Below, piece by piece: positions 2,206 through 27,789 of a stretch of 32,000 bases of DNA (positions are counted from its first letter, which is position 1; every line of letters starts with the position of its first letter). The notes under the pieces were generated by a model. The model ran no database searches. It was not told where the DNA came from and saw nothing but the letters and a program-made list of their open reading frames with translations. The position numbers and the translations under genes were made by a program. Origin of the DNA: Acaryochloris thomasi RCC1774 (GTDB lineage Bacteria; Cyanobacteriota; Cyanobacteriia; Thermosynechococcales; Thermosynechococcaceae). The stretch is from assembly GCF_003231495.1 (NCBI RefSeq), contig NZ_PQWO01000006.1:257387-289386 (forward strand), given 5' to 3'.

Positions 2206-3096
2206 TTGAATAACTCAACCTCAAAGGCTTCGTTTTCTAACATTGTTCCTGACGACTGGGTTTTATCGCGACAGCCGCTGAAGTCGGGTGGCTTCACCAT
2301 TGAGCATCACATGGAAAAACCGGGTGAACTGACAACATCTGGCGTTGCCCAACATGCGTTATTAGTCACAATGAGCGAGGGCAGTACGCATCAGTTTACC
2401 CGGCTTGGGAAGCAAGTCTATGAAGGCGAGAACCCTGCGGGTGCTTTCTGGTTAGCCTCTGCCAATACATCAGCAGAGTGGGCCTGGAAAACCGTTGATG
2501 AGACGGTCGCATTTGTCATCGAGCCTTCGCATTTGCAGCAGGTCGCAGCGGAAACCGAGTGTTTAGATCCTAGTTCAGTTGCATTACGCAATGTTGCCTT
2601 TGGGCGTGATTCGCAGCTTGAGTTTTTAGCTCAATGCTGTCGCCAGGAATTTCTACGGCAAGAAATAGGTGATCGCATCTACACCGATTCCCTCGCCAAT
2701 ATCATTGCACTTCACTTGCTTCGCAACTACTGTACCCATAAGCCACTCATCCGCGAGTGTGCAAAGGGGATGGGAAACAAGCGACTCCGGAATGTGCTGG
2801 AGTATATCGATACTCATTTAGATCAGGAAATCGGGTTGGCTGACTTAGCGGCCGTGGCGAAGATGAGTCAGCATCATCTCTCTCCCATGTTTAAGCAGTC
2901 CACTGGCCTACCTCCCTATCGCTATGTTTTGCAACAGCGGATCCAGCGGGCGAAGCAGCTACTCAAGCAGGATTCCCTCTCGATTACCGACGTGGCCTTG
3001 AGCAGTGGGTTTGCCGATCAGAGTCATCTGACAAAGCATTTCCGTAAGTCTGTGGGCGTCACTCCCAAAGCCTATCGAGAGAACCAAAATCTCTAA
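2206..3096 (+). CDS. AraC family transcriptional regulator
   Basis: 296 aa. C-terminal double HTH 'LADLAAVAKMSQHHLSPMFKQSTGLPPYRYVLQQRIQRAKQLL...ITDVALSSGFADQSHLTKHFRKSVGVTPKAYR'. TTG start at 2206 with AGGA 8 nt upstream; a stop lies in frame at 2182. Confidence 0.85.
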   Translation: MNNSTSKASFSNIVPDDWVLSRQPLKSGGFTIEHHMEKPGELTTSGVAQHALLVTMSEGSTHQFTRLGKQVYEGENPAGAFWLASANTSAEWAWKTVDETVAFVIEPSHLQQVAAETECLDPSSVALRNVAFGRDSQLEFLAQCCRQEFLRQEIGDRIYTDSLANIIALHLLRNYCTHKPLIRECAKGMGNKRLRNVLEYIDTHLDQEIGLADLAAVAKMSQHHLSPMFKQSTGLPPYRYVLQQRIQRAKQLLKQDSLSITDVALSSGFADQSHLTKHFRKSVGVTPKAYRENQNL

Positions 3097-3108: not shown

Positions 3109-3609
3109 TTACAAAACAGTTCCGAAAAGCCAAGCATCAAGGGAGAAGCTTCCAGGGCCAAACGCCAACAGGACAATCAACATTAGGTTGTAAACAAAGG
3201 CTTTCTCCTGACTCGGGGGTTCACCTTTGCCGTTTTCACCTTCGTACTCTCCTGCAGGTATCAGATAGGGATCATTGGCAATGAAGGGTAGACCTTTGGT
3301 GATTTCTAAAACCAAAGCAAATGCCATCGAAGCCAGCAGTGCTAAACAGGTCAGAGGCGTCAATAAACCAAAGGTCAGGCAAATACCGCCCAAGACCATG
3401 GATGAAGCCGATAAAAAACATAGATAAATCGGCATCTCTAAAGATTCGGACCACTGCTGCAGATGGGTCACTTTTGGATAGCCGTGCAGCACAAACAGGA
3501 TGCCCAGGCCGACTCGCAGAGCCAGTAGGGTGCCGCCCTGTATACCGGTGGGAAAGGCTGGATAAAGCGATCGCAACAAGTCTAAAGCAGACTCTAAAAA
3601 ATTGAGCAT
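3109..3609 (-). CDS. DoxX family membrane protein
   Basis: 166 aa with about four hydrophobic segments. 'LRVGLGILFVLHGYPKV' is a DoxX-type N-terminal motif. Its ATG overlaps the upstream stop by 1 nt (TAATG). Confidence 0.7.
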   Translation of the reverse strand: MLNFLESALDLLRSLYPAFPTGIQGGTLLALRVGLGILFVLHGYPKVTHLQQWSESLEMPIYLCFLSASSMVLGGICLTFGLLTPLTCLALLASMAFALVLEITKGLPFIANDPYLIPAGEYEGENGKGEPPSQEKAFVYNLMLIVLLAFGPGSFSLDAWLFGTVL

Positions 3610-4499
3610 TATTTCAATAAATCAATGGTGTACAAAGAGCGGCCCGCTGTGATGAAAAGACGCCTGCCATCCTGACCGCCGAAGGTCAGATTGGCACAGA
3701 CTTCAGGCACCAGAATCTTGCCGAGACAAGTCCCGTCGGGAGCGTATACCTGAATACTGTCGGCGGAGGTAATAAACAGATTGCCCTGCGGATCAACCTT
3801 GAGACCGTCGGGCTGACCGGGTTCAATGGCGCTAAACAATCGACCATTCGCCACCTGCTTTTCGTCAACAAGATCGTAGGCTCGAACGTAGTGATGCCCC
3901 TGAGGATAGTTGACCTGAGAGGTATCCGAGACGTACAGAATCTTTTCGTCAGGACTAAACGCCAGTCCATTGGGGCGTTCCATTTCTGTGATCACCGCAT
4001 CGATTTCTCCAGTCTCGGGATCAAAGCGGAACACGAAGCTTCCAGGCTGTTCCTGCTGTCCGCTGCAGCCTTCTCCAGCCTGAGTCAAGCCAAAGGGAGG
4101 ATCGGTAAACCAGAGGGTGCCATCCCTTTTCATGACAACATCATTGGGGCTGTTCAAACGGTTGTTTTGGTGGCGGTCCACCAATGTTTGCCACTCTCCG
4201 CTGTGTTCACGCCTGACAATGGCGCGTTTTCCATGAGAGCAACTGACCAGTCGCCCTTCTAGATCGAGGCAATTTCCATTTTGATAATCGCTGGGTTCGC
4301 GGATTACTTGGGTGCCGTCCTGAACACTCCAGCGAAAGACTCGGTTACCGCTGACGTCACTCCAAATTACGCTGTTGTCTTCCGGCAAATAGACTGGGCC
4401 TTCGCTGTGCTTTGCGCCCTCTGCTAACTGCTTGAGTTCTGCATTAGGTGAAATCAGATCGCATAAACGAGAGTCGTAAATAACAAGCGTCTTAGACAT
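3609..4499 (-). CDS. SMP-30/gluconolactonase/LRE family protein
   Basis: Beta-propeller lactonase motifs: SEGPVY, NSPNDVV..DGTLWFTDP, RPNGLAFSPDEKILYVSDT, PDGLKVD..GNL. The start was chosen at ATG 4499 (MSKTLVIYDS); the listed ORF extends to 4550. Confidence 0.8.
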   Translation of the reverse strand: MSKTLVIYDSRLCDLISPNAELKQLAEGAKHSEGPVYLPEDNSVIWSDVSGNRVFRWSVQDGTQVIREPSDYQNGNCLDLEGRLVSCSHGKRAIVRREHSGEWQTLVDRHQNNRLNSPNDVVMKRDGTLWFTDPPFGLTQAGEGCSGQQEQPGSFVFRFDPETGEIDAVITEMERPNGLAFSPDEKILYVSDTSQVNYPQGHHYVRAYDLVDEKQVANGRLFSAIEPGQPDGLKVDPQGNLFITSADSIQVYAPDGTCLGKILVPEVCANLTFGGQDGRRLFITAGRSLYTIDLLK

Positions 4500-4521
4500 G
4501 GGGCATTGCCTCGACAAGTTT

Positions 4522-5466
4522 CTACCGACATCCGACGAGCAACAAAGCATGGCCGTCAGGGTCTTTGATTAGACAGCCCCGACGAAATCGATAGGTGTCG
4601 GGAAAGTTCACCCAATGGGGAGAGACGATTTCAACATCTGCTTGTTTGAGCTGCTCTAGGGCCGATTCAATCTCTTCAGTTTCAAGAATAATATGCATGT
4701 GAGCTAGGTCGCTCGCGTCCCAGTGTTCAGGAATGGGGCGACCGGTACCCGGCTTGATATAGTCTAAAAGCTCAATGCCGATGCTGGTTTGAGCGGGCTG
4801 CAGGGGAATAACCTGAACGTCAGCGATGGGTAAGCCATCAAGAGTCGCCTGGACTTCGCCAGAGTGAAGCGTGCTGCTAACGACCGTCATGCCTAGAAGG
4901 TCGCGATAGAACTGCCTGCTGATGTCGGCGTTAGAAATTGCGATCGCACTATGATCGATCCCCAAGAACAAATCATCGCTGTTCTGATGCCACTTCTCTT
5001 TGCCCTTCCCTTCAGGGAACCAAATCAGCTCTAGACTTCGATAGTCAACATCTCTGAACTTGAAGGCCCGTACCCCGCCTGCGGTCGGGTTGTTTGCTGG
5101 AATGGTTTGAGGCCCGTCCGAAATTGGCTCAACGGAAAAGGACTGCAGATGCTTGTAGGCGCGGTCTAAATCGCTGACAACGATCGCCATATGCTGAAAC
5201 CAAAGATCGTTGCTCTGAGAATCCCTCGGAATCGGTGCAGAATCCGAGTCGAGACAGTCAACTAATTCGATAGTTTCATCCCCAAGCTGAAGCGTGACAA
5301 TCCGCACCGGACGAGGCGGAACGTCAGCAATCTGGCTATAGTTAGCTGCTTCTATCGTAATGTCACCCACGGGCTTGAAACCCAGAGCCTGAATATAGAA
5401 GCTCTGGGTGCGGTCAAGTTCCGCCACCGTCAGGGCAATGGAGTGAATTGCTTTGACGGCAACCAT
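4522..5466 (-). CDS. Two-domain VOC (glyoxalase/bleomycin-resistance/extradiol dioxygenase) family protein
   Basis: 314 aa with two tandem VOC-like halves ('IHSIALTVAELDRTQSFYIQALGF', 'IDHSAIAISNADISRQFYRDLLGM' ... 'IKDPDGHALLL'). Confidence 0.75.
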   Translation of the reverse strand: MVAVKAIHSIALTVAELDRTQSFYIQALGFKPVGDITIEAANYSQIADVPPRPVRIVTLQLGDETIELVDCLDSDSAPIPRDSQSNDLWFQHMAIVVSDLDRAYKHLQSFSVEPISDGPQTIPANNPTAGGVRAFKFRDVDYRSLELIWFPEGKGKEKWHQNSDDLFLGIDHSAIAISNADISRQFYRDLLGMTVVSSTLHSGEVQATLDGLPIADVQVIPLQPAQTSIGIELLDYIKPGTGRPIPEHWDASDLAHMHIILETEEIESALEQLKQADVEIVSPHWVNFPDTYRFRRGCLIKDPDGHALLLVGCR

Positions 5467-5467
5467 C

Positions 5468-5932
5468 TCAGCTCAAGTCTCCTGGACGCATCCCCAGCCA
5501 GCGATCGCCCTCTAGCTGAATGATCATCATCTGAACCGGCTGCTCACCCACGGTTCCAGAGATGTGGCCTTGATGTCCCTCGGCGTTTGGCTTTGTGTCT
5601 TGATCGGCTCCAAACGAGATCTCGCCAGTCCCCATTTCGACTCGTTTACCGTCCATTGTTTCGACATACCAGCAGCCCGACAGGGGCACAATCCACTGCG
5701 GCTTAGGATTTTCGTGCCATTCACCAACCCAGCCCACCGGCAGCTCGGCGAACAGGATCTTAGCGTCAGCGCTCATCAAGCGATTGTTCCACTGCGGATC
5801 GGCGTCGCCGCCCATGCTTTCTTGCTCAAAGTTAGTCAGCTCACAGCGGGTTTGGTGGCTGATGCCGTCATCGTCAGTCCAGACATGCCAATAGGGCTGG
5901 GTTGGTGGATTCTCACTGGAAGGAGCGGTCAT
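5468..5932 (-). CDS. Cupin-like small protein (first gene of the operon)
   Basis: 154 aa with a beta-rich 'WHENPKPQWIVPLSGCWYVETMDGKRVEMGTGEISFG' cupin-like core. Its stop is 1 nt from the next gene's ATG. Confidence 0.5.
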   Translation of the reverse strand: MTAPSSENPPTQPYWHVWTDDDGISHQTRCELTNFEQESMGGDADPQWNNRLMSADAKILFAELPVGWVGEWHENPKPQWIVPLSGCWYVETMDGKRVEMGTGEISFGADQDTKPNAEGHQGHISGTVGEQPVQMMIIQLEGDRWLGMRPGDLS

Positions 5933-5950: not shown

Positions 5951-6006
5951 TCATAATTAAGATGACATGGCCCACCGTCGGAACAATCTATCTTCAGAGA
6001 GATATT
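5951..6006 (-). promoter_or_regulatory. Promoter/operator module shared with katG (copy 1)
   Basis: The 56 nt TCATAATTAAGATGACATGG...CAATCTATCTTCAGAGAGATATT align with 9652..9709. The first 14 nt are identical, and both carry the palindromic block ATCTnTCTkCAGAnAGAT (here 5986..6003). On the minus strand a TATGAA -10-like hexamer lies at 5950..5955. Confidence 0.55.
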
Positions 6007-6993: not shown

Positions 6994-7059
6994 TCAGTAA
7001 GACGTTCCTTTGCGATCGCTAAAAAATTTCCCCGTCATCGCCAGCGTGTCCTTGTCCCT
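6994..7059 (-). pseudogene. 3'-terminal remnant of an SDR paralogue
   Basis: The minus strand reads RDKDTLAMTGKFFSDRKGTSY-stop, versus ...EATLAMTGKFFSDRIETAY-stop for the intact SDR at 9719. Nt 7013..7047 match 9738..9772 at 33/35 positions, the first 26 identical. An in-frame TGA lies immediately upstream (7060..7062). Confidence 0.6.
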
Positions 7060-7271: not shown

Positions 7272-9566
7272 TCAAGCGTGGACGTCAAAACGATCGAGCA
7301 TCATCACCTTGTCCCAGGCCGCAACGAAGTCTTTGACCATGCGTTCATGACCATCATCAGCACCGTAGACTTCGGCCACTTGGCGTAGCTCTGCGTTTGA
7401 ACCAAAGATCAGATCGCAGGATGTTGCAGTGAACTTTGTCTCGCCGGATTTGCGATCGCAAATCTCAAAGAGCCTCTCGCGATCGTCGGCGGGCTTCCAC
7501 TCATAGTCCATGCTGGTCAGAACTCGGAAGAAGTCATTGGTTAAAACACCGGGCCGGTCGGTAAAGACACCGTGCTTTGAATGATCCCAGTTTTGGTCGA
7601 GGGCACGCAGTCCGCCGACGAGGGCCGTCCATTCAGGAGCGGTCAACGTTAGGAGGTGCGCTCGGTCAAGAAAGATCCGCTCTGGCTTTACCTTGAAGCC
7701 AATCGCATCATTGTGGTAGTTCCGAAAACCATCCGAGACCGGCTTCAGCCAATTGAAGCTTTCAACATCGGTCATTTCCTGAGTCGTATCCATTCGACCC
7801 GGAGTGAACGGAACAGATACAGAAACACCGGCATCTTGCGCCGCCTTCTCGACTGCAGCACAGCCGCCCAGAACGATCAGGTCTGCCATTGAAATTTTTT
7901 TGCTGCCCGACTGAGCACCGTTAAAGTCTGACTGAATTTGCTCAAGGGCCGATAGAACCTCGCCAAGCTCCTGGGGGCGATTCATCTCCCAATCCTTCTG
8001 CGGATCTAAGCCGACACGCGCGCCATTTGCGCCGCCGCGCTTGTCAGTGTCACGGTAGGTGGACGCTGATGCCCAAGCGGCTGACACGAGCGCTGAGACA
8101 GAGAGTCCACTCTCGAGGATCTTATGCTTGAGAGCATCGATATCGGCATCACCAACAACATCATGGTCGAGCGCCGGAATCGGATCTTGCCAGGGCAAGT
8201 CCTCTTTTGCGACTTCTGGGCCAAGGTAGCGCGCCTTCGGACCCATATCCCGGTGCATTAACTTGTACCAAGCGCGAGCGAACGCATCGCTGAAGTCATC
8301 AAAGTCACCGACGAAGCGCTGACAGATCTCGTGATAGGCCGGATCAACCTTTAACGCCAAGTCCGACGTCATCATCATCAGCGAGTGCTCAACGTTTGGC
8401 TGGTGGGCATCCGGCGTCTTCGGTGCATCTGGACTGCTCGGCTGCCACTGAATGGAACCGGCTGGACTTTCAGTCTTTTCCCAGTCGTACTTGAACAGAT
8501 TTTCTAGGTAGCTGTTGTCCCATTGGGTCGGGTCTGGCGTCCAGGATCCTTCAATCCCGTTCGTCATTGTATATTGGGCAAATCCTGTCCCTTTTGGGTT
8601 TTGCCACCCGAGGCCCATTGCCTGGAGCGGTGCGGCTTCCGGTGCGGGGCCGATCTTGTCCGGCTCTACCATGCCGTGACTCTTACCGAAGGCATGACCG
8701 CCTGCAATCAGCGCCACAGTTTCCTCATCATTCATCCCCATGCGCGCAAAGGTCTCGCGGATATCGCGGGCGGACGCGGCGGGATCGCCCTCACCGTTCG
8801 GACCTTCGGGATCAACATAAATTAGTGCTTGGTGCGAAGCCGCCAGCGGATTTTCAAGGTCGTAATGTTCCTCGTCCGGCTTGCCGACCCAGCGGATCTC
8901 GCGGGTGACCATCTGATCTGGATGACCGGCGTGCTGCTTACCTCTTTCTCCGCTTTCTTCGAGCGATTGGCCATTCCAAAACTCAGAACCCCAGTAGGTG
9001 GACCGGTCTGCTTCCCAGGCGTCAATGCGACCGCCGCCAAAGCCGAAGGTCTTGAAGCCCATAATCTCAAGGGCGCAGTTGCCCGTTAGAGCCATTAGAT
9101 CAGCCCAGCTCAGCGCTGCACCATATTGCTGCTTAATCGGCCACAGCAGCCGCCGTGATTTATCGGTGTTCCCGTTATCCCACCAAGAATTGAGGGGGGC
9201 GAAGCGCTGCATGCCTTGACCGGCACCGCCGCGACCGTCTGCGATCCGGTAGGTGCCTGCGGCGTGCCACGCCATGCGGACCATCTGCGGCCCATAATTG
9301 CCGTAGTCAGCAGGCCACCAATCTTTCGAATCCGTTAGCAGCGCTTTGATATCACTCTTTAACTGTTCAAAATCAATCTTTTCAAAGGCTTCTTGATAAT
9401 TAAAATCTCGTAGCGGATTGGCTTGGGACGACTGTGTATGGAGAAGTTCGACCTGAAGCCGATTCGGCCACCAATCATCGGTTTGTGGCTTGGAGCCGAG
9501 AGCGCCGCCAACGCGGGTTCCACGGAAAGGGCATTGCGCAGGAGCGGCGGTAGGGGTGTTGTTCAT
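7272..9566 (-). CDS. katG: Bifunctional catalase-peroxidase KatG
   Basis: 764 aa with a two-lobed class I peroxidase layout and KatG-typical segments: 'CPFRG...[13 protein letters not shown]', '[19 protein letters not shown]', '[13 protein letters not shown]', '[22 protein letters not shown]'. Confidence 0.97.
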
Positions 9567-9651
9567 GGGTCCAATCCTTTCTAGGAAGTGTCTTCAGTCT
9601 GGCGAGTTGCTGCAGTAAGTTGGGCCGTGTGCTGGCATTGACGGCGCTCAA

Positions 9652-9709
9652 TCATAATTAAGATGGCACGATCAACGCTAGATACTCAATCTCTCTGCAG
9701 ATAGATATT
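9652..9709 (-). promoter_or_regulatory. katG promoter/operator module (copy 2 of the 5951..6006 element)
   Basis: TCATAATTAAGATGGCACG...CAATCTCTCTGCAGATAGATATT. An 18-bp palindrome at 9689..9706 pairs at 8 of 9 positions. On the minus strand TATGAT (-10-like) lies at 9651..9656, about 85 nt upstream of the katG ATG. Confidence 0.55.
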
Positions 9710-9718
9710 CAGTTGTCT

Positions 9719-10417
9719 TTAATAGGCTGTCTCAATACGATCGCTAAAAAATTTCCCCGTCATTGCTAGCGTCGCTTCCGTCGCTAGCCAAACTGCCGTA
9801 TCGGCACCTTGCTCGGGCGATCGCGGTGCCGACTCACCTCCCATATCCGTCGCCACCCAGCCAGGAGACATGGCATACACGCCAATCTGCTTTGGCCGCA
9901 GAGCATTCGCGAGCATAATAGTCGCTCCATTCAGTGCCAGCTTCGATAAACAGTAGCTGGGAACATTTGCCGAGAGTCCATCCAAAGCGCCATAGCCACT
10001 GGACATGTTGATCACTTTGGCGCTGTCAGATTTTTCGAGCAGCGGCAGGAAGGTCTGTGTGATCTTCACGGGACTGAAGGCATTTGTGTTCATGGTCTGG
10101 TCAAGAAGCTCCCGTGAAATCGTGAGGATGTTGACGCCTTCGTCGGGATAAATGCCGGCGTTGTTGATCAGCACGTCGAGACGCTCTATTTGTCGAGTGA
10201 GAGTTTCAGCCGCTTTCTGAATGCTGTGATCGTCAGTCACGTCGAGTTCAAGTGTTTTTACGTCTGGGTGTAGCTGTTCGGCAGCGGCTTGGGCTTTGGG
10301 TTGCGATCGCGCCGCCAAAATGACCTCAAACCCTGCTTTTAAGAGTCCTTCGCAAATGGCATAGCCGATCCCCCGATTGCCTCCAGTGACTAGAGCCGTT
10401 TTGTGTTGAGATGGCAT
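9719..10417 (-). CDS. SDR family oxidoreductase (carbonyl-reductase-like)
   Basis: 'TALVTGGNRGIGYAI' Rossmann motif, 'NNAG', and catalytic 'YCLSK'. Confidence 0.9.
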   Translation of the reverse strand: MPSQHKTALVTGGNRGIGYAICEGLLKAGFEVILAARSQPKAQAAAEQLHPDVKTLELDVTDDHSIQKAAETLTRQIERLDVLINNAGIYPDEGVNILTISRELLDQTMNTNAFSPVKITQTFLPLLEKSDSAKVINMSSGYGALDGLSANVPSYCLSKLALNGATIMLANALRPKQIGVYAMSPGWVATDMGGESAPRSPEQGADTAVWLATEATLAMTGKFFSDRIETAY

Positions 10418-10864: not shown

Positions 10865-10931
10865 GAATTGAGTTCTCCTATCGTTCTACCTGTCTTGCTT
10901 ACAATGAATCTTGATCGGACAAACCAGCAAA

Positions 10932-11118
10932 CTATAGTTCACAGATTAGCAGTCTGTCTAAAAAGTAGTTTGTTCTTTTGGAACCCTAGAGTGGGTTCTA
11001 TCAGCCTGAGGGATAATAGTCCGAGGGGGCTTCGAAAGAAAGAGGGAGGCCTTCTTCAATTCGAGCGATCACTAAAACTTGCATGGTTGAATTTCTCTGC
11101 AAAGGGGCTTGATATTGC
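10932..11118 (-). pseudogene. GUN4-domain C-terminal remnant (stops and a frameshift)
   Basis: The minus strand reads ...LPLSFEAPSDYYPSG**NPL*GSKRTNYFLDRLLICEL-stop, versus ...ELDFSLEAPLGCHPSGWWNSPYGSKMTNYFLARLLTCEQ-stop for the intact gene at 15669. Further upstream, AISSPFAEKFNHASFSDRS in another frame aligns with IAQDQTLVEKWGDRLGWREGDR. Confidence 0.7.
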
Positions 11119-11589
11119 TCAAACAAAGAGACTACCGCCATCAATATCGATGACTGTTCCTGTGAGATAAGGGTTAGTCATGATTTGCAACGCTATTGCC
11201 GCGATGTCTTCAGGTAATCCGATTCGCTGGACTGGGAGCTGCTCGGCTGTGTTTTTGTACATGGCTTCCCGTTGCTCCTCGGGCATATCGCTATAGATTG
11301 GGGGCTTGACCAGGCCCGGAGAAATCACGTTGACTCGCACGGGGGCTAATTCGACTGCCAAGGAGCGGCCTAATCCTTCTACGGCGGCGTTGACAGTGGT
11401 TGCAGCAACTGTCCCCACCGCAGGCCTGTGACTCAGCACACCCGAGAACAACGTGACCGAACCAGTGGCGCACATCTTGGCTGCTTTCACTGCTCGATAG
11501 GCTCCCCAGAACTTGCTGTCCATCGACGCCATCGCGTCTGCGGTTTCCATAAATGAAAGCGTTTTTTGTGTCATAGCGAAAGCAAACAA
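11119..11589 (-). pseudogene. SDR family oxidoreductase lacking the N-terminal Rossmann part
   Basis: The 156 aa correspond only to the C-terminal two-thirds of an SDR ('KFWGAYRAVKAA', 'NVISPGLV', 'GTVIDIDGGSLFV'). There is no TGxxxGxG segment. Only ~140 nt of non-coding-looking DNA lie upstream before the next gene. Confidence 0.55.
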
Positions 11590-14400: not shown

Positions 14401-15417
14401 TTAGCTCACCTGCAGCACAATCTTTCCGGTCTGCTTGTTTGACTCCAGCGACTGATGCGCTGCCACCACATCATCAAGCTTGAAGGTTTCGCTCACCACT
14501 GGTTTCAACCGACCGTCGGCCAAGCGCGGCAGCAGAAACTCACGTGCCTCAGCCACCGCTTCAACCTGCTGCGGCATACCCATGTGCGGATAGCCCGTGT
14601 AGGCAAATACGCTATAGCCATGCAAACTGATGTTTTTAGCCAGTACCGACATAGCGGGCAGCACCGGATCAGTCTGATCGAGAACTCCGTACAACACATA
14701 GCGCCCACCGACTGCCAAAGAGTTCAGCAGTGTCGGAATACTTTTTCCTGCAATCGGATCGAAGACTATCTTGACGCCTTTGCCTCCCGTAATCTCCTCA
14801 ATGCGGGTGGCTAAATCCTCCTCGTCAGTCACAATCACGTGATCGGCCCCAGCCTCCGATAGTGCTGCCGCTTTCGCTCGCTTTCGAGTGGTGGCAATGA
14901 CCGATGCACCAAGCTGCTTCGCAACTTCAATTCCGGCGAAACCGACGCCACCCGTTGCCGCTGTGAGCAGTACCGTATCGCCTTCTCCAACTTCACCTAT
15001 CGTGCTTAGGGCAAAGTACACCGTTGTATATTGAACCCCAACACAGGCAGCTTCTTCTGCGGAAAGGCGCTCAGGCCAGGGCCAGATTGCGTTGGCGGGA
15101 ACGATCGCCGCTTCACCGTATACGCCATAGTCTCCCTGAGAGAATGCGGGGATAGTGAAGATGCGATCGCCCACGGCTACATTGTCAACACCAGACCCCA
15201 CCGCCTCAACCGTCCCCGCAGCATCATAGCCAAGCTTGCAAGGAAGTTTTGGCACCTCAATATATTGATTAAGTCGCCAGAGCGCATCTGCACGGTTTAA
15301 GCCAACAGCCTTCACCGAAATGCGGACTTCACCCTTGCTAGGTTCCGGCAGCTCTTGGTCGTCAATCTTGAGAACCTCAGGACCACCAAATTCATGAATA
15401 CGGACAATGCGTGCCAT
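14401..15417 (-). CDS. MDR-family NADPH:quinone oxidoreductase / zinc-binding dehydrogenase
   Basis: Quinone-oxidoreductase-type MDR ('GLNRADALWR', 'AATGGVGFAGIEVAKQLGA'). The start was chosen at ATG 15417 (MARIVRI), 7 nt after GGAGA; the listed ORF begins at TTG 15438. Confidence 0.85.
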   Translation of the reverse strand: MARIVRIHEFGGPEVLKIDDQELPEPSKGEVRISVKAVGLNRADALWRLNQYIEVPKLPCKLGYDAAGTVEAVGSGVDNVAVGDRIFTIPAFSQGDYGVYGEAAIVPANAIWPWPERLSAEEAACVGVQYTTVYFALSTIGEVGEGDTVLLTAATGGVGFAGIEVAKQLGASVIATTRKRAKAAALSEAGADHVIVTDEEDLATRIEEITGGKGVKIVFDPIAGKSIPTLLNSLAVGGRYVLYGVLDQTDPVLPAMSVLAKNISLHGYSVFAYTGYPHMGMPQQVEAVAEAREFLLPRLADGRLKPVVSETFKLDDVVAAHQSLESNKQTGKIVLQVS

Positions 15418-15459
15418 TCTCATCTCTCCATTCTGCAAACTAGGCTGTAACTGAAATTC

Positions 15460-15546
15460 GATATTGACTTACTATCGGTAGCCTAATGACCGCCTCATTA
15501 ATTAGTCAAATGCATACTACGGATATATGGAATCGATAGCATGAAT
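15460..15546. promoter_or_regulatory. Orphan LysR-type divergent control region with a LysR start-codon stub
   Basis: 87 nt align with 22063..22144: GATATTGAC, CTATCGGTAG, CTAATGACC, GTCAAATG and ATCGAT...ATGAAT are shared. It contains the dyad TAATGA-n5-TCATTA. After ATGAAT (15541) the reading frame has no LysR similarity. Confidence 0.6.
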
Positions 15547-15668
15547 ATTGGGTTCACATCTGTGACTGTGCTGCTAGCCTCCAGCACGATTTCTCGGGTC
15601 ACGGGAAAATCTCGGTATGGAATCCTTTTGATATTTCTTGATTTATCCACGAAGTTGATAGGTGCAGT

Positions 15669-16292
15669 CTATTGTTCACAAGTTAGCAGTCGGGCGAGGA
15701 AGTAGTTTGTCATCTTCGAGCCGTAGGGCGAGTTCCACCAGCCAGATGGATGGCAGCCCAAGGGGGCTTCGAGGGAAAAGTCGAGTTCATGACACTTGCG
15801 CCAGCGATCGCCTTCCCGCCAGCCCAGGCGATCGCCCCATTTCTCAACGAGGGTTTGATCTTGAGCGATTGTGGTATCGAGCGTTCCCCCCAGCTCCTGA
15901 TAGATGCGGAGCTGAACGCTGAACCCGAACCGTTCATCGCTATAGGTTTGCCAAAGCTGATCGAGTACCTGTAGCTGACCGCAAGGAAATTTGCGGATGT
16001 CGTCGGGCCTTAGATCCTCTAGGTTTGCCACGCCTTCGATATCTTGAATCAAGCGAATGGTTTCCTGATCTGCCTCATACCAACGATGGTCAGCAAGATA
16101 ATCTTGAAGCTGTTCATAGCGATATAAATCGCCAACGGCTAGGAGTCTCTGCTCAATTTTGGTGACTTGCTTTGATAGCTGCTGCAGCGGTGAAACTTGC
16201 GTCTTGACTTCCTCTATCTGGGTCATGAGCTCCTGAAGCTGCGCTTGAATAGCAGCGAGCTGTTCACCTAGGGCGTTATCGGCATTACTCAT
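15669..16292 (-). CDS. GUN4-domain protein with N-terminal coiled coil
   Basis: The C-terminal part 'FPCGQLQVLDQLWQTYSDERFGFSVQLRIYQELGG...WGDRLGWREG...LEAPLGCHPSGWW' fits the GUN4 domain pattern. The N-terminal 50 aa are heptad-like (LQELMTQIEEVKTQV). Confidence 0.7.
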   Translation of the reverse strand: MSNADNALGEQLAAIQAQLQELMTQIEEVKTQVSPLQQLSKQVTKIEQRLLAVGDLYRYEQLQDYLADHRWYEADQETIRLIQDIEGVANLEDLRPDDIRKFPCGQLQVLDQLWQTYSDERFGFSVQLRIYQELGGTLDTTIAQDQTLVEKWGDRLGWREGDRWRKCHELDFSLEAPLGCHPSGWWNSPYGSKMTNYFLARLLTCEQ

Positions 16293-17074: not shown

Positions 17075-20000
17075 TCACTTATCCGGGGGACTCTTGACCA
17101 TGTTGGCTTCAGCTTCCTCCTCACTCATCGAAGGTCCAAGAGCCTCCATCTTTCTTCCTTTCCTGCCGCCACCCTTCAAGAAAGATTCCTCCAGATTCTT
17201 GATGACAATATAGAGAATCGGAACAAAGATCAGACTCAACGTCGTTGCCACCAACATGCCGCCAAAGACTGCTGTCCCCAGCGACCAGCGGCTTACTGCA
17301 CCCGCACCCGACGCAATCACCAACGGGATAAAGCCTGCCAGTGTCGAAATCGCCGTCATCAAAATAGCCCGAAATCGCTGCTCAGAAGCAAAGATAGCGG
17401 CTTGCTTGATTTTCATCCCCAAATCACGATTTTGATTCGCAAATTCCACAATCAAGATCGCATTCTTACTCGCCATCCCAATCAGCATCACTAAGCCAAC
17501 CTGAGCATAGATATTGTTGTTCAGCACCGGCCAAACGCCACCCGCCTGAAAAACCGTTGCTCTCAGCCAAATTCCGCCCAGCGCCCCCAAAATTGCTAGT
17601 GGAACAGAAAGCATAATGATCAAGGGATCGATATAGCTTTCGTACTGTGCTGCTAAGACCAAGAAAACCATCACAAAGCTCAGACCGAACACAATTGGAG
17701 CTGCGCCACCTGCTGACTTCTCTTCCGCTGCAGTATTGGTCCATTCATAGTCGAAACCGGGCTGCAGGGTGGCTTCAGCAACTTCTTCCATTGCTTGAAT
17801 GATCTGCCCTGAGCTATATCCAGGCGCAGGGGCTACGTTGACCTTGATCGCTGGATAGACGTTGTAGTTGCTGACAATGGGTGGGTAAGAAATTTGTTTC
17901 GCATTGATGAGATTGCTGAGCTGAATGAGTTCACCGTCACGCGATCGCACATACAAACTATTAATATCCTCCGGGTTCTGGCGCTGCTCCGCCTCTGCTT
18001 GGGCATAGACGCGATAGAGCCTGCCGTCGAGGACGAACTGATTGACAAAATTAGAGCCAAGGTAGGTCTGCAGCGTAGTTAAAATCTCGCTCACGTCTAC
18101 GTTTTGAGCATTGGCGCGATCGCGATCAATATCCGCCTCTAGCATCGGGCTGTCGAAGGTAAAGGTGGTCAGCGCCATTGCAACCTCGGGTCGCTCATTC
18201 GCGGCGGCAATCACTTTCTGGGTATTGTCGATTAGGGCATCCATCCCTCTACCCTGGCGGTCTTCAATAAAAATTTCTGACCCCCCAAAGCTGCTTAGAC
18301 CATCGACCGGCGGAGCGTTAACGGCAATCACTCTTCCCCCGTCAATACCTTGCTGAAATTGCTGATTGGCCTTCTGAAGCACCCCGAAAATAGAGCTAGA
18401 ATCTTTGGGGCGCTGCGCCCAGGGATAGAGCTTGACGAACATAATGCCTTTATTGCTGTTCAGGCCATCGAAAGAGAAGCCTGACAGCCCCATCGTATGC
18501 TCCACCTCCTCGTAATCCATCATCATCTGAGCGGCTTGCTCCGTAATTCGGTGGGTATAGTTCAACGAAACTCCGGGCGGTGCTTCGATAATCACAAAGA
18601 AATAGCCCTGGTCTTCTTCGGGCACAAATCCTTGAGGCAGCGTCTGATAGGCCCACCCCGTCAGAACTAAACCCGCCACAAAGATAGCGATCACTACCGG
18701 CTTGATCCGAGTCAAGAACTCAATGAGCTGACGATAGCGTCCTTTCAACCCATCAAAGCTGCGATTAAATCGAGGGAATAACCAGCCCAAAGGCCCCTTC
18801 ACCGGCTCCGCTCGCTGCAGGAAAACCCCAGACATTGAGGGCGAAAAGGTGAGGGCATTAAACGTTGAAAAAACAACGGCAAATGCAATGGTCAGCGCGA
18901 ACTGTTTATACACAATCCCCGTCGTACCAGGGAAGAACGTTACTGGAATGAAGACGGCCATTAACACAACAGACGTAGAAATTACAGCTCCCACCAGCTC
19001 ATCCATTGCATCTAAAGCAGCCTGCTGAGGACTCATACCCTGAGACAGCTTGCCTGAGACGGCTTCGACAATGACAATCCCGTCATCTACCACTAGACCC
19101 GTGGCGAGAATACAGGCAAACAGCGTTAACTGATTGAGCGTAAAACCCAAGACCTGCAGCGCAATCATCGTCCCAATCAAAGCTACCGGGATCGCCACGG
19201 CGGGGATCAAAGTCGCTCGCCAATCCTGCAGAAAGATAAAGATGATTAAGATCACCAACCCAATGGCTTGGGCAAGGGTCACGAGCAGATCCTTTAGAGA
19301 CGCATTGATAAACAGCGTGTTATCGTGAGCGACTTCAGCCTTCAAGCCTCGCGGAAAGTCGGCCTCTAACTCCGCCATTTTGGCCTTCACCAGTTCGGCT
19401 GTATTGAGTGCGTTGGTTCCCGGAAGTTGATAGATGACGAGTCCCACCGCTGGGTTCTCTGCATCAAATACGGCCTGAGAAAAATAGCTTTCTACGCCTA
19501 ACTCTGCGCGACCCACATCACTAACCTTAATCAGCGTGCCGTTCTCTCCAGCTTGAACCACTAAACTTTCGGCTTCCTCGACCGTCGTGAAGCGTCCTAA
19601 CACCCTTAGCGGCAGCTCAAATTGCTGTTGCGGAACGGTGGGCTGACGACCCACGCCCCCTGCCCCTACTTCAAAGTTTTGGCTTTGAACCGCATTCACC
19701 ACATCGGCTGCCGTTAGCCCCCGAGCTGCCAGCTTGTCAGGGTCGAGCCAGAGGCGCATCGAATAGGTCGCGGCACCAAAAGCCCTGAGACTGCCCACTC
19801 CTTCAATTCGCCTCAGTTCATTCCAGAGATAGCGATCGAGATAGTTATAGAGAAAATCAGGTTCGTAGTAGTAGTCACCCGCTTTATCTTTCTCGGAGTA
19901 AAGGGAATAAACCAGCGTGACGCTCGGAGACTCCTTCTCTGTGGTTATCCCCGTCGCTGTAACGCTTGGGGGCAGATTGGACTGTGCCTGCGCTACCCGG

Positions 20001-20338
20001 TTTTGCACGAGCACCTGTGCTGTATTCGTATCTTTTTCAACCGGGAAAGAGACGTTGATCGTGGCGCTGCCGGTGTTGTCGGTGCTGGAGCTGATCCACT
20101 TGATGTCCTCGGTGCCGTTGATCTCGCGTTCGAGGACGGTCGTTACATTCTCAACGGCAGTTTTGGCATCTGCCCCCACGTAATTTGCCCGGACAGCAAT
20201 CTGCTTTGGTGCAATCTGAGGCAGTTTATCCAGTGGCAGCAAGGCCATACAAATCAGACCCAGCAGCACAATCACGATAGTGCAGACGGTTGTTAAAACG
20301 GGACGCTTGATGAAGGGAGTGGAAACAGAAAACAGCAT
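17075..20338 (-). CDS. RND efflux transporter permease (AcrB/HAE1-like)
   Basis: 1087 aa. Typical RND N-terminus 'FIKRPVLTTVCTIVIVLLG', two large periplasmic loops and 12-TM architecture. Confidence 0.95.
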   Translation of the reverse strand: MLFSVSTPFIKRPVLTTVCTIVIVLLGLICMALLPLDKLPQIAPKQIAVRANYVGADAKTAVENVTTVLEREINGTEDIKWISSSTDNTGSATINVSFPVEKDTNTAQVLVQNRVAQAQSNLPPSVTATGITTEKESPSVTLVYSLYSEKDKAGDYYYEPDFLYNYLDRYLWNELRRIEGVGSLRAFGAATYSMRLWLDPDKLAARGLTAADVVNAVQSQNFEVGAGGVGRQPTVPQQQFELPLRVLGRFTTVEEAESLVVQAGENGTLIKVSDVGRAELGVESYFSQAVFDAENPAVGLVIYQLPGTNALNTAELVKAKMAELEADFPRGLKAEVAHDNTLFINASLKDLLVTLAQAIGLVILIIFIFLQDWRATLIPAVAIPVALIGTMIALQVLGFTLNQLTLFACILATGLVVDDGIVIVEAVSGKLSQGMSPQQAALDAMDELVGAVISTSVVLMAVFIPVTFFPGTTGIVYKQFALTIAFAVVFSTFNALTFSPSMSGVFLQRAEPVKGPLGWLFPRFNRSFDGLKGRYRQLIEFLTRIKPVVIAIFVAGLVLTGWAYQTLPQGFVPEEDQGYFFVIIEAPPGVSLNYTHRITEQAAQMMMDYEEVEHTMGLSGFSFDGLNSNKGIMFVKLYPWAQRPKDSSSIFGVLQKANQQFQQGIDGGRVIAVNAPPVDGLSSFGGSEIFIEDRQGRGMDALIDNTQKVIAAANERPEVAMALTTFTFDSPMLEADIDRDRANAQNVDVSEILTTLQTYLGSNFVNQFVLDGRLYRVYAQAEAEQRQNPEDINSLYVRSRDGELIQLSNLINAKQISYPPIVSNYNVYPAIKVNVAPAPGYSSGQIIQAMEEVAEATLQPGFDYEWTNTAAEEKSAGGAAPIVFGLSFVMVFLVLAAQYESYIDPLIIMLSVPLAILGALGGIWLRATVFQAGGVWPVLNNNIYAQVGLVMLIGMASKNAILIVEFANQNRDLGMKIKQAAIFASEQRFRAILMTAISTLAGFIPLVIASGAGAVSRWSLGTAVFGGMLVATTLSLIFVPILYIVIKNLEESFLKGGGRKGRKMEALGPSMSEEEAEANMVKSPPDK

Positions 20339-20382: not shown

Positions 20383-21750
20383 TCAGTTACTCTGCTGCTG
20401 GCCCTCTCCTGCTTCTAGACTTCCGACCGTCTCTGCTTCCGTGATCGGTGTGCTGTCTTTGAGACTCAAAATATTGGAGGTGGCGATGCGATCTCCGACT
20501 TGGACGCCAGAGAGAATCTGATAGGCTTGATTTTGGATTTTGCCCAGCTTGATGGGCTGCTGCTGAGCCACTAGAGTGGCCTCGCCTGCCTCAGATTTCT
20601 GTTCTTTCGCGACGTAAACAAAGCTCTGCCCACCTAGAGTAGAAATGGCTGTTGTGGGGACGAGGATTCCTGGATTTTGATCCCAGATCACTCGAACGCG
20701 GACATACTCTCTATCTCGCAACCGACTCTGACTGGGGAACGTTACCTTCGCCAAGATTGATTGGGCATTCTGCTGCACCAGCGGAGCAACGTACGAAATT
20801 GTTCCTTTAATGCTCGATGTCTCACCATCTTCAATTGTTTCTGTCGCCAACCCTCGCTGGAGCCGATCGCGATTCTCAATCGGGATATTAATATTCAGCT
20901 CAAGATCTTGGTTGTTGGTAAGCGTCGTCAGTTGCTCACCAATGCTTACGTAGTCTCCGACTTTCTTCTCATCAAAGCTACCAATCACCCCATCAATCGG
21001 AGCGCTAATTGTATTAAAAGCAAGATTTTGACCGACTGACTTCAATTCAGCCGCTGAGCGAGAAACTGCCGCCTTTTGACTGGCAATACTTGCCCTGGCC
21101 TGATCGACTTGTCTATCAGAAGCCTCAAGGGATTCGACGGCTGCATTGAGAGCTTCTTGGCGAGAATTGCGCTGAGCTATATTTGTCTTGAGATCGCGGT
21201 TGGCATCATCTAAGTTCTGCTGAGGCTGCACGCCCTCCTTAACCAGCATTTTGGCGCGCCCCATATTGATCTGTGCTAATTCGACTTCGGCACCCAAATT
21301 TTCTAAATCGGCCTTCGCACTTTTTACCTGAGCAGCCGCCACTGCACGGTTTGCCTGGGCTGTTCTGAGTTCAGCTAGGGCTTGACCTAACGTAGCCCGC
21401 TCAACGTTGACGCTCTGATTGGCTGCATTGACATTTTCCTGGGCTTGGGTTGGTTCTAGTCGAACGATTTTGTCGCCCTTGCGCACTCTCTGTCCCTGCC
21501 TGACAAAAATTTCTATGATTCTGCCGTCGATTCGAGGAGCGAGGCTAACGCGATCTCGTGCCGTTGAAGTCCCGATAAATTCGCTGCTGTTAACGTGTGT
21601 ATCAGATTCAATGGTTGCTAGCTTGACTGCGATGGCTTTTGGCTGCTGCGCCTCTTTTTTGCCACCGCATCCTCCGAGTATTGAAGAGGTAGATAAAGCA
21701 ATAACAGACAAAAGTAGCGAGAAGCTTTTTAATTTGTGTTCAGCAATCAT
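20383..21750 (-). CDS. RND efflux periplasmic adaptor (membrane fusion protein), lipoprotein
   Basis: Lipobox 'ILGGC' after a signal sequence. Long alpha-hairpin region flanked by barrel-sandwich motifs ('RIDGRIIEIFVRQGQRVRKGDKIVRLE'). Confidence 0.9.
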   Translation of the reverse strand: MIAEHKLKSFSLLLSVIALSTSSILGGCGGKKEAQQPKAIAVKLATIESDTHVNSSEFIGTSTARDRVSLAPRIDGRIIEIFVRQGQRVRKGDKIVRLEPTQAQENVNAANQSVNVERATLGQALAELRTAQANRAVAAAQVKSAKADLENLGAEVELAQINMGRAKMLVKEGVQPQQNLDDANRDLKTNIAQRNSRQEALNAAVESLEASDRQVDQARASIASQKAAVSRSAAELKSVGQNLAFNTISAPIDGVIGSFDEKKVGDYVSIGEQLTTLTNNQDLELNINIPIENRDRLQRGLATETIEDGETSSIKGTISYVAPLVQQNAQSILAKVTFPSQSRLRDREYVRVRVIWDQNPGILVPTTAISTLGGQSFVYVAKEQKSEAGEATLVAQQQPIKLGKIQNQAYQILSGVQVGDRIATSNILSLKDSTPITEAETVGSLEAGEGQQQSN

Positions 21751-22062
21751 TTCACGAAGCCTGCTCTAGAGAGATATATCTGCAGCAATTTTGGATTTTT
21801 GTCTAGCTATCAATTTCCGATTGGCCTGCCTCTAAGGGCCGAGCCACACGAACGGCTAGCGCGTTGAAGAGCGATAGCCATAGGAATGCGGTCGTTATTT
21901 CTGTTTGAAAGGGTTCAGAGAATGAATAGAGTTTAAGTAGATTAAGAGGAAGTCTTCTGGTTTGTCTTGTCAGTTCTTGCTCAAATTTGTCAGATATTTC
22001 TTGATATTGACGGGATAGATATCTGCTATTCACACAGCTAATGTTAGCTAACGGATCTAGCT

Positions 22063-22138
22063 GATATTGACCCTCTATCGGTAGACTAATGACCATTGAC
22101 AGTATTGGTCAAATGAATATCATAGATAGTTAGTATCG
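22063..22138. promoter_or_regulatory. LysR-type divergent control region (intact copy of the 15460..15546 element)
   Basis: Lies immediately upstream of the LysR ATG. It shares the blocks listed for 15460..15546 and contains the dyad TGACC-n12-GGTCA (22090..22111). Confidence 0.55.
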
Positions 22139-23092
22139 ATGAATCTAATTCCAGAAGAGTCTTCTGTGACGATTGACTACGCCAGCCTCCGCCAGCTCGA
22201 CTTAAATCTGCTGCTTGCCTTTGACATTCTCGTTGAAGAGGCGAGTGTGACTCAGGCTGCTGAGAAGCTGAACATGAGCCAGTCAGCAATGAGCCATGCA
22301 CTTAAGCGTTTGCGGGCAGTGCTTGGCGATCCGATTTTGATTCGGACTTCACAGCGACAGATGGAAGTGACCCCCTATGCCCGTGAGATCAGTCCTCAGG
22401 TGCGACAGGTGCTCACAGATATTCAGGAAACGCTGCTGGCGAAAGATGTCTTCGACCCTGCCACTGCTCAAGAGGATTTTAGAATTGCCACTAATGACTA
22501 CGTTGAGGCGACCCTCAGCGCCCATTTGCTCCCAGAATTAATGCAGCAAGCGCCTGAAATTCAGGTGCGAATCGCGGGCATGGATAAGGATACAGCCTTA
22601 GCTTCTCTTGATAACAACAGCATCGATTTGTTCATCGGAGCGGGCTTAGATCTGAAGCGCTGGCATATTCGTGAAGCACTTTATCCGGAAGAGTTTGTCT
22701 GTGTGGTGCAGAGCGACTGTCCGTTGACTGAACTATCGCTAGAGGAGTATGCATCGAGATCTCATATCCTAGTTTCACTTCAGGATGACTTTCGAGGCGT
22801 TGGCGATCTAATCCTGGAACAGCAGCAGCAGTCTCGCCAGGTTGTTTGGTCAACGCCTCACTTTATGGCTGTGCCCTTTATGTTGGCCAACTCAGACTGC
22901 GTCGCCCTCTTGCCCAAGCGAATGGCGGAGCGATGTGCTAGGGAGATGGGGCTAAAGCTACTGCCGCCGCCCATCGACGTGACGGGATTCACGGTGTCTA
23001 TGGTCTGGCATCAGCGTCACAATAATCGTCCCCAGCACCAATGGCTCAGAAGTCAGCTTATAGCTGCCGCACAGCGTCTATCCGATCTCTAA
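22139..23092 (+). CDS. LysR family transcriptional regulator
   Basis: N-terminal HTH 'LDLNLLLAFDILVEEASVTQAAEKLNMSQSAMSHALKRLR' plus a C-terminal substrate-binding domain. Confidence 0.9.
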   Translation: MNLIPEESSVTIDYASLRQLDLNLLLAFDILVEEASVTQAAEKLNMSQSAMSHALKRLRAVLGDPILIRTSQRQMEVTPYAREISPQVRQVLTDIQETLLAKDVFDPATAQEDFRIATNDYVEATLSAHLLPELMQQAPEIQVRIAGMDKDTALASLDNNSIDLFIGAGLDLKRWHIREALYPEEFVCVVQSDCPLTELSLEEYASRSHILVSLQDDFRGVGDLILEQQQQSRQVVWSTPHFMAVPFMLANSDCVALLPKRMAERCAREMGLKLLPPPIDVTGFTVSMVWHQRHNNRPQHQWLRSQLIAAAQRLSDL

Positions 23093-27314: not shown

Positions 27315-27789
27315 GAGAGGCAGACAATACCTCTCGCTTGGGCTTCGGCACTAGTACGGGGGGAAACAGCTAGTGTTGGGGGTAAGGTCCGGGTTGCGAC
27401 AAGCACCACCGGACCTTTGCTACTCTTTTCAGCAACCAGCTTTGTGTCTGTGTGACGGAAATCACAGGCACCTCTAGCGTTGCCAGAGATGATGGTGTTG
27501 AAAGGGACGGATTAATAAAAAAAGTCCCTTCGGTACTGGCATCGTCCATTCACCTTCATTCTTACCTGATGGTGATTTAGGACTGCGAGTTTGCGTCTTA
27601 TCCTTTCGGAATAAGTTGCCTTTTCGGGGACTTTTTGAGGGCTGCACGGGGGGTGACAGCCGATACTCCTAATATAGACACCGTGACCCGCCTAGGAACA
27701 CAGGGTAACTACGGGAATTAGGAACATCATTTCAAGTTGATATCCGTGGTATTACAGACTCTGGCCGGAAGAGCCACCCAAGATTGAGG
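27315..27789 (+). ncRNA. Candidate structured RNA of unknown class (hypothesis only)
   Basis: The supplied track shows no ORF of 60 aa or more on either strand from 26948 to 27794. Local hairpins lie at 27315-35, 27349-75, 27384-417, 27451-66, 27502-30, 27597-615 and 27640-61. cUUCGg motifs are present when read on the + strand. Two hairpin loops share ACGGGGGGnnACAGC. Confidence 0.2.

Follow-up and report, generated by a model that had tools for sequence, protein, structure and literature searches.

Upstream of two transcription units in a 32-kb stretch of cyanobacterial DNA (32,000 nt in full, hereafter the window), namely the catalase-peroxidase gene katG and an operon of four uncharacterised enzymes, the same short sequence module is found. 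Do the two units answer to one regulator and, if so, which of them was recruited into the regulon of the other? The initial annotation had read the shared module as the sign of a common regulon that links the four enzymes to the peroxide response. The window is recognisable as cyanobacterial by its GUN4 gene and by the frequent GCGATCGC, and it is dense in genes of redox metabolism and detoxification (Dps, katG, several SDRs and Zn-ADHs, VOC proteins); a Xi-type GST, an RND pump and regulators of the TetR, AraC and LysR families are also encoded.

The operon occupies positions 3109..5932 of the minus strand and encodes, in the order of transcription, a cupin (5468-5932), a two-domain VOC protein (4522-5466), an SGL-type lactonase (3609-4499) and a DoxX protein (3109-3609). 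The gene identities were confirmed by Pfam (Glyoxalase twice, SGL lactonase, DoxX), and the tight spacing first reported was recovered: a 1-nt gap between cupin and VOC, a 22-nt gap between VOC and lactonase, which assumes that the lactonase starts at 4499 and is 296 aa long as in the orthologues L001 and L128, and a 1-nt overlap between lactonase and DoxX. The lactonase resembles beta-propellers of the gluconolactonase type; for the VOC protein and the cupin we found no close characterised structure or relative. The cupin has >1,800 homologues, most of them from filamentous cyanobacteria. L128 has the same four-gene operon, and L001, L002, L122 and L123 have the cupin-lactonase pair. The katG gene, assigned by Pfam, lies at 7272..9566 on the minus strand and encodes 764 aa.

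The module consists of an 18-bp palindrome followed, after a variable spacer, by a 14-nt box. In a scan of the window, the 14-mer TCATAATTAAGATG was found in exactly two copies, at 5951-5964 and 9652-9665 as read on the plus strand; even with 2 mismatches allowed, only 0.33 matches would be expected. On the minus strand, which is the coding strand of both units, the box upstream of the cupin gene reads CATCTTAATTATGA, and the katG copy is identical. The 18-bp palindrome ATCTnTCTnnAGAnAGAT is likewise present exactly twice, and the pattern ATCTnTCTkCAGAnAGAT, proposed in the initial annotation, matched only these two unstranded sites, at 5986-6003 (coding-strand ATCTCTCTGAAGATAGAT, cupin) and 9689-9706 (coding-strand ATCTATCTGCAGAGAGAT, katG), with 0.12 matches expected at up to 2 mismatches. 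Together with its flanks the palindrome reads CAATCTnTCTnCAGAnAGATATT in both copies. The two elements come in the same order and face the same way with respect to the minus-strand gene that follows (cupin ATG at 5932, katG ATG at 9566), as had been described, and the spacer between palindrome and 14-mer is 21 nt at the cupin gene and 23 nt at katG. A half-site weight matrix scored the cupin site at 29.6 bits and the katG site at 31.5 bits; the next best site in the rest of the window reached only 3.5 bits and the best in 50 shuffles 13.8 bits. The matrix scan of the window found no motif at Dps, the ADH and SDR genes, the GST gene or the RND operon.

The similarity between the two copies is distributed unevenly. 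The box is identical at 14/14 positions and the palindrome with its flanks at 20/23, whereas the core of the spacer is identical at only ~7/17 positions and contains a 2-nt indel; outside the module, on either side, the two sequences are unrelated. The divergence of the spacer, with box and palindrome both kept, points to selection on two elements rather than to a passive duplicate. Dimeric helix-turn-helix proteins of the MarR, TetR or Crp type typically bind even-centred 9-9 palindromes of 18 bp, and both palindromes are putative sites of such a regulator. As an alternative function of the palindrome we considered a terminator or an RNA hairpin and rejected it: the palindrome folds weakly (-5.1 and -2.8 kcal/mol), it is followed by no T-run, and in an Rfam search no family overlapped it. 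Elsewhere in the window, a c-di-GMP-I riboswitch aptamer (Rfam RF01051) was detected at 27529-27630 of the minus strand (38.9 bits, gathering threshold 35); it lies in a gap of ~850 nt with no ORF longer than ~59 aa downstream on the aptamer strand.

We then compared 87 cupin loci, 80 from a metagenome scan and 7 from look-ups. A search among relatives had been suggested initially; in it, the module proved to be kept at the same operon in L001 and L128 and absent from the 85 other cupin loci, even by a relaxed composite rule that 21 of 17,400 shuffled upstream regions satisfied. In L001 the cupin is 88% identical and part of a cupin-lactonase operon; in L128 the cupin is 86% and the VOC protein 83% identical within an operon of four genes as in the window. 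Both loci have a spacer of 23 nt and the sequence TGnCATCYT at the box. In the L001 palindrome all 14/14 constrained positions are kept and the unconstrained positions vary; in L128 11/14 are kept, with three unsymmetrical changes, and the constraint on the palindrome is relaxed there. No alignment between the window and L001 is possible upstream of the palindrome, and the sequence that follows the box at the cupin operon is gene-specific and conserved with L001 and L128.

In three further loci with a cupin ~90% identical (L002, positions 3190-3230; L122; L123) no module is present; instead, a different 18-bp palindrome, CTCATCCTTATGAATGAG, i.e. CTCATCCTT(A/T)TGAATGAG, is followed directly by a TTGACA-like hexamer (TTGACA in L002 and L122, TTGATC in L123). 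Since these operons have another palindrome and a TTGACA-like -35, the module is dispensable for the operon, and the promoters of the operon turn over fast. The module is lineage-restricted, confined to a small clade. The same three loci contain, ~300 nt upstream, an ATCTCT-N8-AGAGAT sequence next to a divergent 154-aa gene of unassigned family. We considered it as a variant site and did not count it, as its spacing is 2 bp longer and it adjoins the divergent gene.

What is invariant in all four copies (two in the window, L001 and L128) is the palindrome core, then T-G-n-C-A-T-C-y-T, four free bases and (A/G)-T-G, so that the conserved T-G forms the sixth and seventh nucleotide after TGnCATCYT in 4/4 copies. 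This pattern led us to revise the core promoter. The hexamer TATGAw, suggested initially as the -10, is confined to the window copies (the orthologues have CATGAG in L001 and TGTGGA in L128), and the invariant TGn-CATCYT sits 8 nt upstream of it. In promoters of the sigma-70 type, an extended -10 has TGn immediately before a hexamer whose second base is A and whose sixth is T, and it makes a -35 unnecessary. A TGn next to a hexamer with -11A and -7T was found in 4/4 copies; the base at -12 of CATCTT is an atypical C in place of T. The earlier statement that a good -35 is lacking agrees with our scan, in which no canonical -35/-10 promoter was detected in either intergenic region. The extended -10-like elements are TGT-CATCTT at 5959..5967 (cupin) and TGC-CATCTT at 9660..9668 (katG), both on the minus strand, the former lying inside and next to the 14-mer.

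A T-G six and seven nucleotides after a -10 hexamer is a typical -1/+1 pair, i.e. a pyrimidine-purine start. We infer putative starts at G 5952 for the cupin operon and at G 9653 for katG, with predicted leaders of 20 nt and 87 nt. With CATCTT as the -10, the centre of the palindrome, estimated before at about 50 nt upstream of the start, would move to -42.5 at the cupin operon and -44.5 at katG, L001 and L128, over the -35 position; the palindrome would span about -51..-34 in the former and -53..-36 in the latter. The 2-bp variation among the copies is thus counted from predicted starts. For katG, an alternative -10, TATGAT at 9656-9651, matches the consensus better (5/6) and would start transcription at ~9645-9646, exactly where the conserved katG leader begins.

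That leader bears on the origin of the katG copy. With the closest katG loci (L124, L125 and L127, 88-89% identical) the homology covers the coding region only (window positions 9542..7281), and their upstream sequences are unrelated to that of the window katG. A katG-native 5′ leader is nevertheless recognisable in the window: 9567..9646 of the minus strand, CGCCGTCAATGCC ... AAAGGATTGGACCC, is homologous to the katG leaders of L129 and L133 and starts 5 nt after the box. Leaders of this kind, ~80 nt long (CGCCGTTCAAAC ... AATGGC ... CTCAG ... CAAyTTA ... AAAGrGGATCrGAC), are common to several cyanobacterial katG genes, with the shared positions at 490-571 in L129, 1420-1500 in L133 and 9567-9646 in the window. 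The cassette shared by katG and the cupin operon ends where the gene-specific leaders begin, and for this reason it looks like a transplanted promoter. Its palindrome with flank at katG is identical to the cupin copy of L001 at 27/28 positions.

The surroundings of katG carry traces of rearrangement. The segment made up of katG, its leader and its module is enclosed by a pair of 35-nt direct repeats (94% identical). The right copy (9738..9772, plus strand) lies inside the 3′ end of the SDR gene at 9719-10417(-); the left copy (7013..7047, plus strand), downstream of katG, looks like a leftover of that gene end. The repeats suggest that katG was inserted or rearranged at this place. Gene fragments are also found in the region. 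A 115-nt stretch (10927-11041 against 15664-15778) is 74% identical to part of the GUN4 gene, the SDR ORF at 11119-11589 is truncated and covers only the C-terminal two-thirds of its domain, and a 144-aa ORF at 16289-16723 matches only the last third of a Na+/H+ exchanger. These SDR, exchanger and GUN4-like fragments indicate that the region was rearranged repeatedly.

The distribution of the module gives the capture a direction. The module is present at the cupin operon in three lineages and at katG only in the window; it is absent at nine katG loci (katG 85-89% identical), among them L124, L125 and L127 and five further loci. The most parsimonious explanation is that katG took the promoter of the cupin operon, and it is more likely that katG was recruited into the regulon of the operon than the reverse. 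The claim that the module links the enzymes to the peroxide response is therefore turned around: the cassette belongs to the operon, and the native katG promoter was lost. Dps, a classical gene of peroxide regulons situated 4 kb away, has no site, which also speaks against such a link; what points to peroxide is the presence of katG and nothing further. The closest katG orthologues share an element of their own, TGAATCATGTAAATCATGAyAAkGATCGCC, ~110 nt before the katG ATG (L124 1385-1415, L125/L126 5871-5900, L127 3471-3500). We considered labelling it a Fur/PerR-like box and dropped the label, since it has 6-7/19 mismatches to the Fur consensus; it is better described as a conserved AATCATG-N3-AATCATG element.

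Taken together, the module of ~60 nt could be understood as a promoter cassette with two functional blocks. In the first, an 18-bp palindrome with the half-site ATCT[A/C]TCTG would be bound by a dimeric helix-turn-helix regulator, probably one not encoded next to the operon. The second, 21-23 nt downstream, would be the extended -10 core TGn-CATCTT with no -35 hexamer, from which transcription would start ~7 nt further on, at the conserved T-G. The palindrome would then lie over the -35 region, as in cyanobacterial class II activator-dependent promoters. Within a small clade of filamentous cyanobacteria, the cupin(-VOC)-lactonase(-DoxX) operon would have had this cassette from its ancestor, and in the genome of the window a copy would have displaced the promoter native to katG as far as the start site, bringing katG under the regulator of the four enzymes. 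We assign this reading as a whole a probability of roughly 55%. That one regulator serves katG and the four-gene operon, activator and repressor versions taken together, we regard as quite probable: a common regulator is the best reading of the copies because their similarity exceeds chance, is conserved in blocks, recurs in orthologous promoters and has its 3′ edge at the gene-specific leaders. What the sequences establish directly is the pattern of conservation, the distribution among lineages and the junction with the native katG leader; protein binding at the palindrome, the starts at the two G residues, the sign of regulation, the signal and the co-expression of the two units would be deduced from them.

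As to the sign of regulation, we lean slightly towards activation, since a core promoter of this kind seems too weak to work unaided. The same geometry would also suit a repressor that blocks access of RNA polymerase. The 2-bp difference in spacer length between the window copies is awkward for a class II activator that depends strictly on the face of the helix, and this difference, together with the regulatory habit of detoxification operons, favours repression.

Repression could also be arranged in another way, which we consider unlikely. Here the two units would form a shared regulon under negative control, the palindrome being an operator over the start of a promoter located just upstream of it and the box being part of the 5′ leader. 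The -10 would be (T/G)AATAT, the last two bases of which are the first two of the palindrome, with a TTGACA-like hexamer 17-19 nt upstream of it. In detoxification operons derepression is more usual than activation, and the 2-bp difference in the spacer would be harmless for a repressor. The left flank AAT is indeed kept asymmetrically in three copies, giving TAATAT or GAATAT, but L128 has GTAACT at the -10 position. TTGACA-like hexamers can be picked out as ATGAGA at the window cupin operon (17-nt spacer), TTGAGA at the window katG (19 nt) and TCGACA in L001 (19 nt); the matches are weak, however, and below the 9/12 threshold of our scan. The arrangement would match that of the MhqR operator at -6..+12, MhqR-type operators being 9-9 inverted repeats with ATCTC/GAGAT arms over the start site (PMC6798810), yet no MarR or TetR gene is adjacent to the module-bearing units in the window, L001 or L128. 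The strictly conserved TGnCATCYT...TG is left unexplained by this layout, and the shared sequence ends at the box and the native katG leader, which fits a start at the box and not one 45 nt upstream.

Still less probable is a recent duplication or recombination, the same event that produced the 35-nt repeats, with the similarity as its by-product; common regulation would not follow from it, and one copy, or its palindrome, might be functionally irrelevant. In favour are the direct repeats on both sides of the katG segment and the gene fragments around it, and the 27/28 identity of its palindrome and flank to the L001 cupin copy has the look of descent and not of convergence. The box, moreover, is 14/14 identical in the window even where orthologues vary: four of its positions (AATT) differ among the orthologues, so its identity points to recent copying or gene conversion and not to selection on every base. 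Against this reading, divergence after a neutral duplication should be even, whereas the spacer has fallen to ~40% identity with an indel and the two blocks stand at 87-100%. Moreover, katG needs a promoter, and no candidate is present other than the copied segment, which takes the place of the katG promoter precisely as far as the leader. At the cupin operon, the palindrome has been retained across three lineages.

The genome-collection scan bears on whether the palindrome recurs at large. In this collection, which did not include the window's own genome, ATATCTNTCTNNAGANAGATTG gave 37 exact matches, of which 9, from 5 independent loci, were cyanobacterial. The flanked palindrome ATATCTnTCTnnAGAnAGATTG is thus over-represented in cyanobacteria (9/37), where it occupies conserved intergenic positions with no box: L091, L107, L113 and L114 (Microcoleus), L096 and L115 (Nostoc), L087 and L108 (Kamptonema), and L118; in L108 it lies ~40 nt upstream of a lipoprotein/ABC-transporter operon. 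These copies may be sites of a related regulator or repeat elements. We considered them as the visible part of the regulon and did not use them as evidence, as they have no box and their contexts are unrelated.

It is very improbable that the palindrome, or the module in its entirety, belongs to some dispersed repeat or small mobile element that is frequent in the genome and has nothing to do with promoters: the 9/37 exact matches in cyanobacteria, the Nostoc pair (L096, L115) that shares sequence on one side only and the two near-identical copies 270 nt apart in L118, like the ends of a repeat element, lend it some colour, but the cyanobacterial matches all lack the box, the 28 non-cyanobacterial ones are close to chance (~17 for 18 fixed bases in 1.2e12 positions, and more if AT-rich), the module has neither terminal inverted repeats nor target duplications, both copies in 32 kb lie at promoters in the same orientation, and the orthologous position is conserved in L001 and L128. 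In ~0.45 Mb of independently fetched cyanobacterial loci, only one further copy of at least 12 bits was found, the L001 orthologue, the diverged L128 copy falling below the cut-off. The possibility named at the outset, a common dispersed repeat, is thus not borne out in the window and the fetched cyanobacterial loci examined.

None of the three local regulators suggested as binders of the palindrome appears to be a good candidate, as judged from their genomic contexts. The TetR gene (405-998) has a pair of palindromes of the CCATACG-N4-CGTATGG type just upstream; they are held in two tandem 30-nt repeats at 350-427, which run into the start of the gene, and are probably TetR's own operators, different from the palindrome of the module. 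The LysR gene (22139-23092) adjoins a different shared element of ~75 nt. This second shared upstream module of the window, CATTTGACyAAT ... GGTCATTAGnCTACCGATAGnnnGTCAATATC, is found at 15439-15520, upstream of the Zn-ADH gene 14401-15438(-), and at 22040-22138, where LysR 22139-23092(+) diverges from orf97 and the RND efflux operon (21803-22096, 20383-21750 and 17075-20338, all minus), and it is probably the LysR regulator's own small regulon. The AraC gene (2206-3096) is not syntenic with the operon in L128, and proteins of the AraC family rarely use perfect 9-9 palindromes. A MarR domain turned up neither in the scanned ORFs of the window nor in the genes called for L001 and L128, and our search of the literature on regulator motifs of katG or DoxX operons in cyanobacteria returned nothing relevant.

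Tentatively, and on the doubtful side, the parts may be combined further. A new cyanobacterial stress regulator would recognise ATCTmTCTG-CAGAkAGAT at the -35 of extended -10 promoters and respond to a redox-cycling or electrophilic compound, not to peroxide itself; the conserved cupin-VOC-lactonase-DoxX operon under its control would serve detoxification, and katG would have been wired in by wholesale replacement of its promoter. If this were true, the locus would show how a regulon grows by promoter capture, in a case that can be dated and followed in the sequence. The phenomenon is familiar, as shared operators that define small regulons are routine, and the module is a lineage-specific instance that leaves general principles unchanged; its best feature is the promoter replacement at katG, resolved at the level of sequence. 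If confirmed, the motif would provide a handle for DNA-affinity capture of a cyanobacterial stress regulator, co-expression with a catalase-peroxidase would give a widespread operon of uncharacterised enzymes its first physiological context, and a housekeeping defence gene would have moved between regulons by the swap of a 60-nt promoter cassette.

To place the module among known systems, we compared it with four of them. The classical peroxide regulons resemble it in that a catalase-peroxidase gene shares a regulator motif with other stress genes, but here the closest katG orthologues carry other upstream elements and the Dps gene of the window has no site. In sequence, the module agrees with none of the OxyR, PerR and Fur consensus sequences. 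The best match to the OxyR operator (ATAGnTnnnAnCTAT-N7-ATAGnTnnnAnCTAT; four ATAG/CTAT elements at 10-bp intervals) in either upstream region had mismatches at 8-9/22 fixed positions, and the palindrome is even-centred and of 18 bp. Against the PerR and Fur boxes (TTATAATnATTATAA and GATAATGATAATCATTATC; AT-rich 7-1-7 or 19-bp inverted repeats that overlap the promoter) we counted 4-5/14 (PerR) and 8/19 (Fur) mismatches, and the matches upstream of both genes were no better than in unrelated control regions.

Among described operators, that of MhqR comes nearest. The MhqR regulon of Bacillus subtilis includes VOC-type dioxygenases and glyoxalases, a DoxX-like membrane protein and a hydrolase, and the classes of enzymes in our operon, VOC with DoxX and a hydrolase or lactonase, are by Pfam the same. 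MhqR, a quinone repressor of the MarR type in B. subtilis and Staphylococcus aureus, regulates VOC dioxygenases and related enzymes, and its operator is a 9-9 inverted repeat, TATCTCGAA-aTCGAaATA, at -6..+12 over the start (PMC6798810). The module likewise has a 9-9 inverted repeat, with the same outer arms ATCTC...GAGAT, but its arms are 8 bp apart instead of 6 bp, its palindrome lies upstream of a conserved core element, and its best match to the operator consensus TATCTCGAA-TTCGAGATA has 8/18 mismatches. In addition, no MarR gene is nearby, the phylum is another one and katG does not belong to the MhqR regulon. The relation to MhqR would thus be one of analogy and not of membership; by the same analogy, a quinone as signal or substrate of the operon is a plausible guess.

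In architecture the module resembles the NtcA-type class II promoters of cyanobacteria, in which GTA-N8-TAC is centred at -41.5 and a -10 of the form TAN3T follows ~22 nt downstream with no -35. As in these, a palindromic dimer site would lie over the -35 position of a weak core that has no -35 hexamer, and the distance from the centre of the site to the first base of the -10, 30 nt at the cupin operon and 32 nt in the other copies, compares with ~29-30 nt for NtcA. The module differs in its entirely different, even-centred 18-bp palindrome (ATCTmTCTG/CAGAkAGAT), in its -10, which would be CATCTT with a TGn extension, and in a spacing that varies by 2 bp. The history of the katG copy, which we infer here from the sequence junctions, corresponds in turn to regulon rewiring by promoter capture: katG keeps its coding region and its leader, gains the cassette of another operon, and is flanked by direct repeats.
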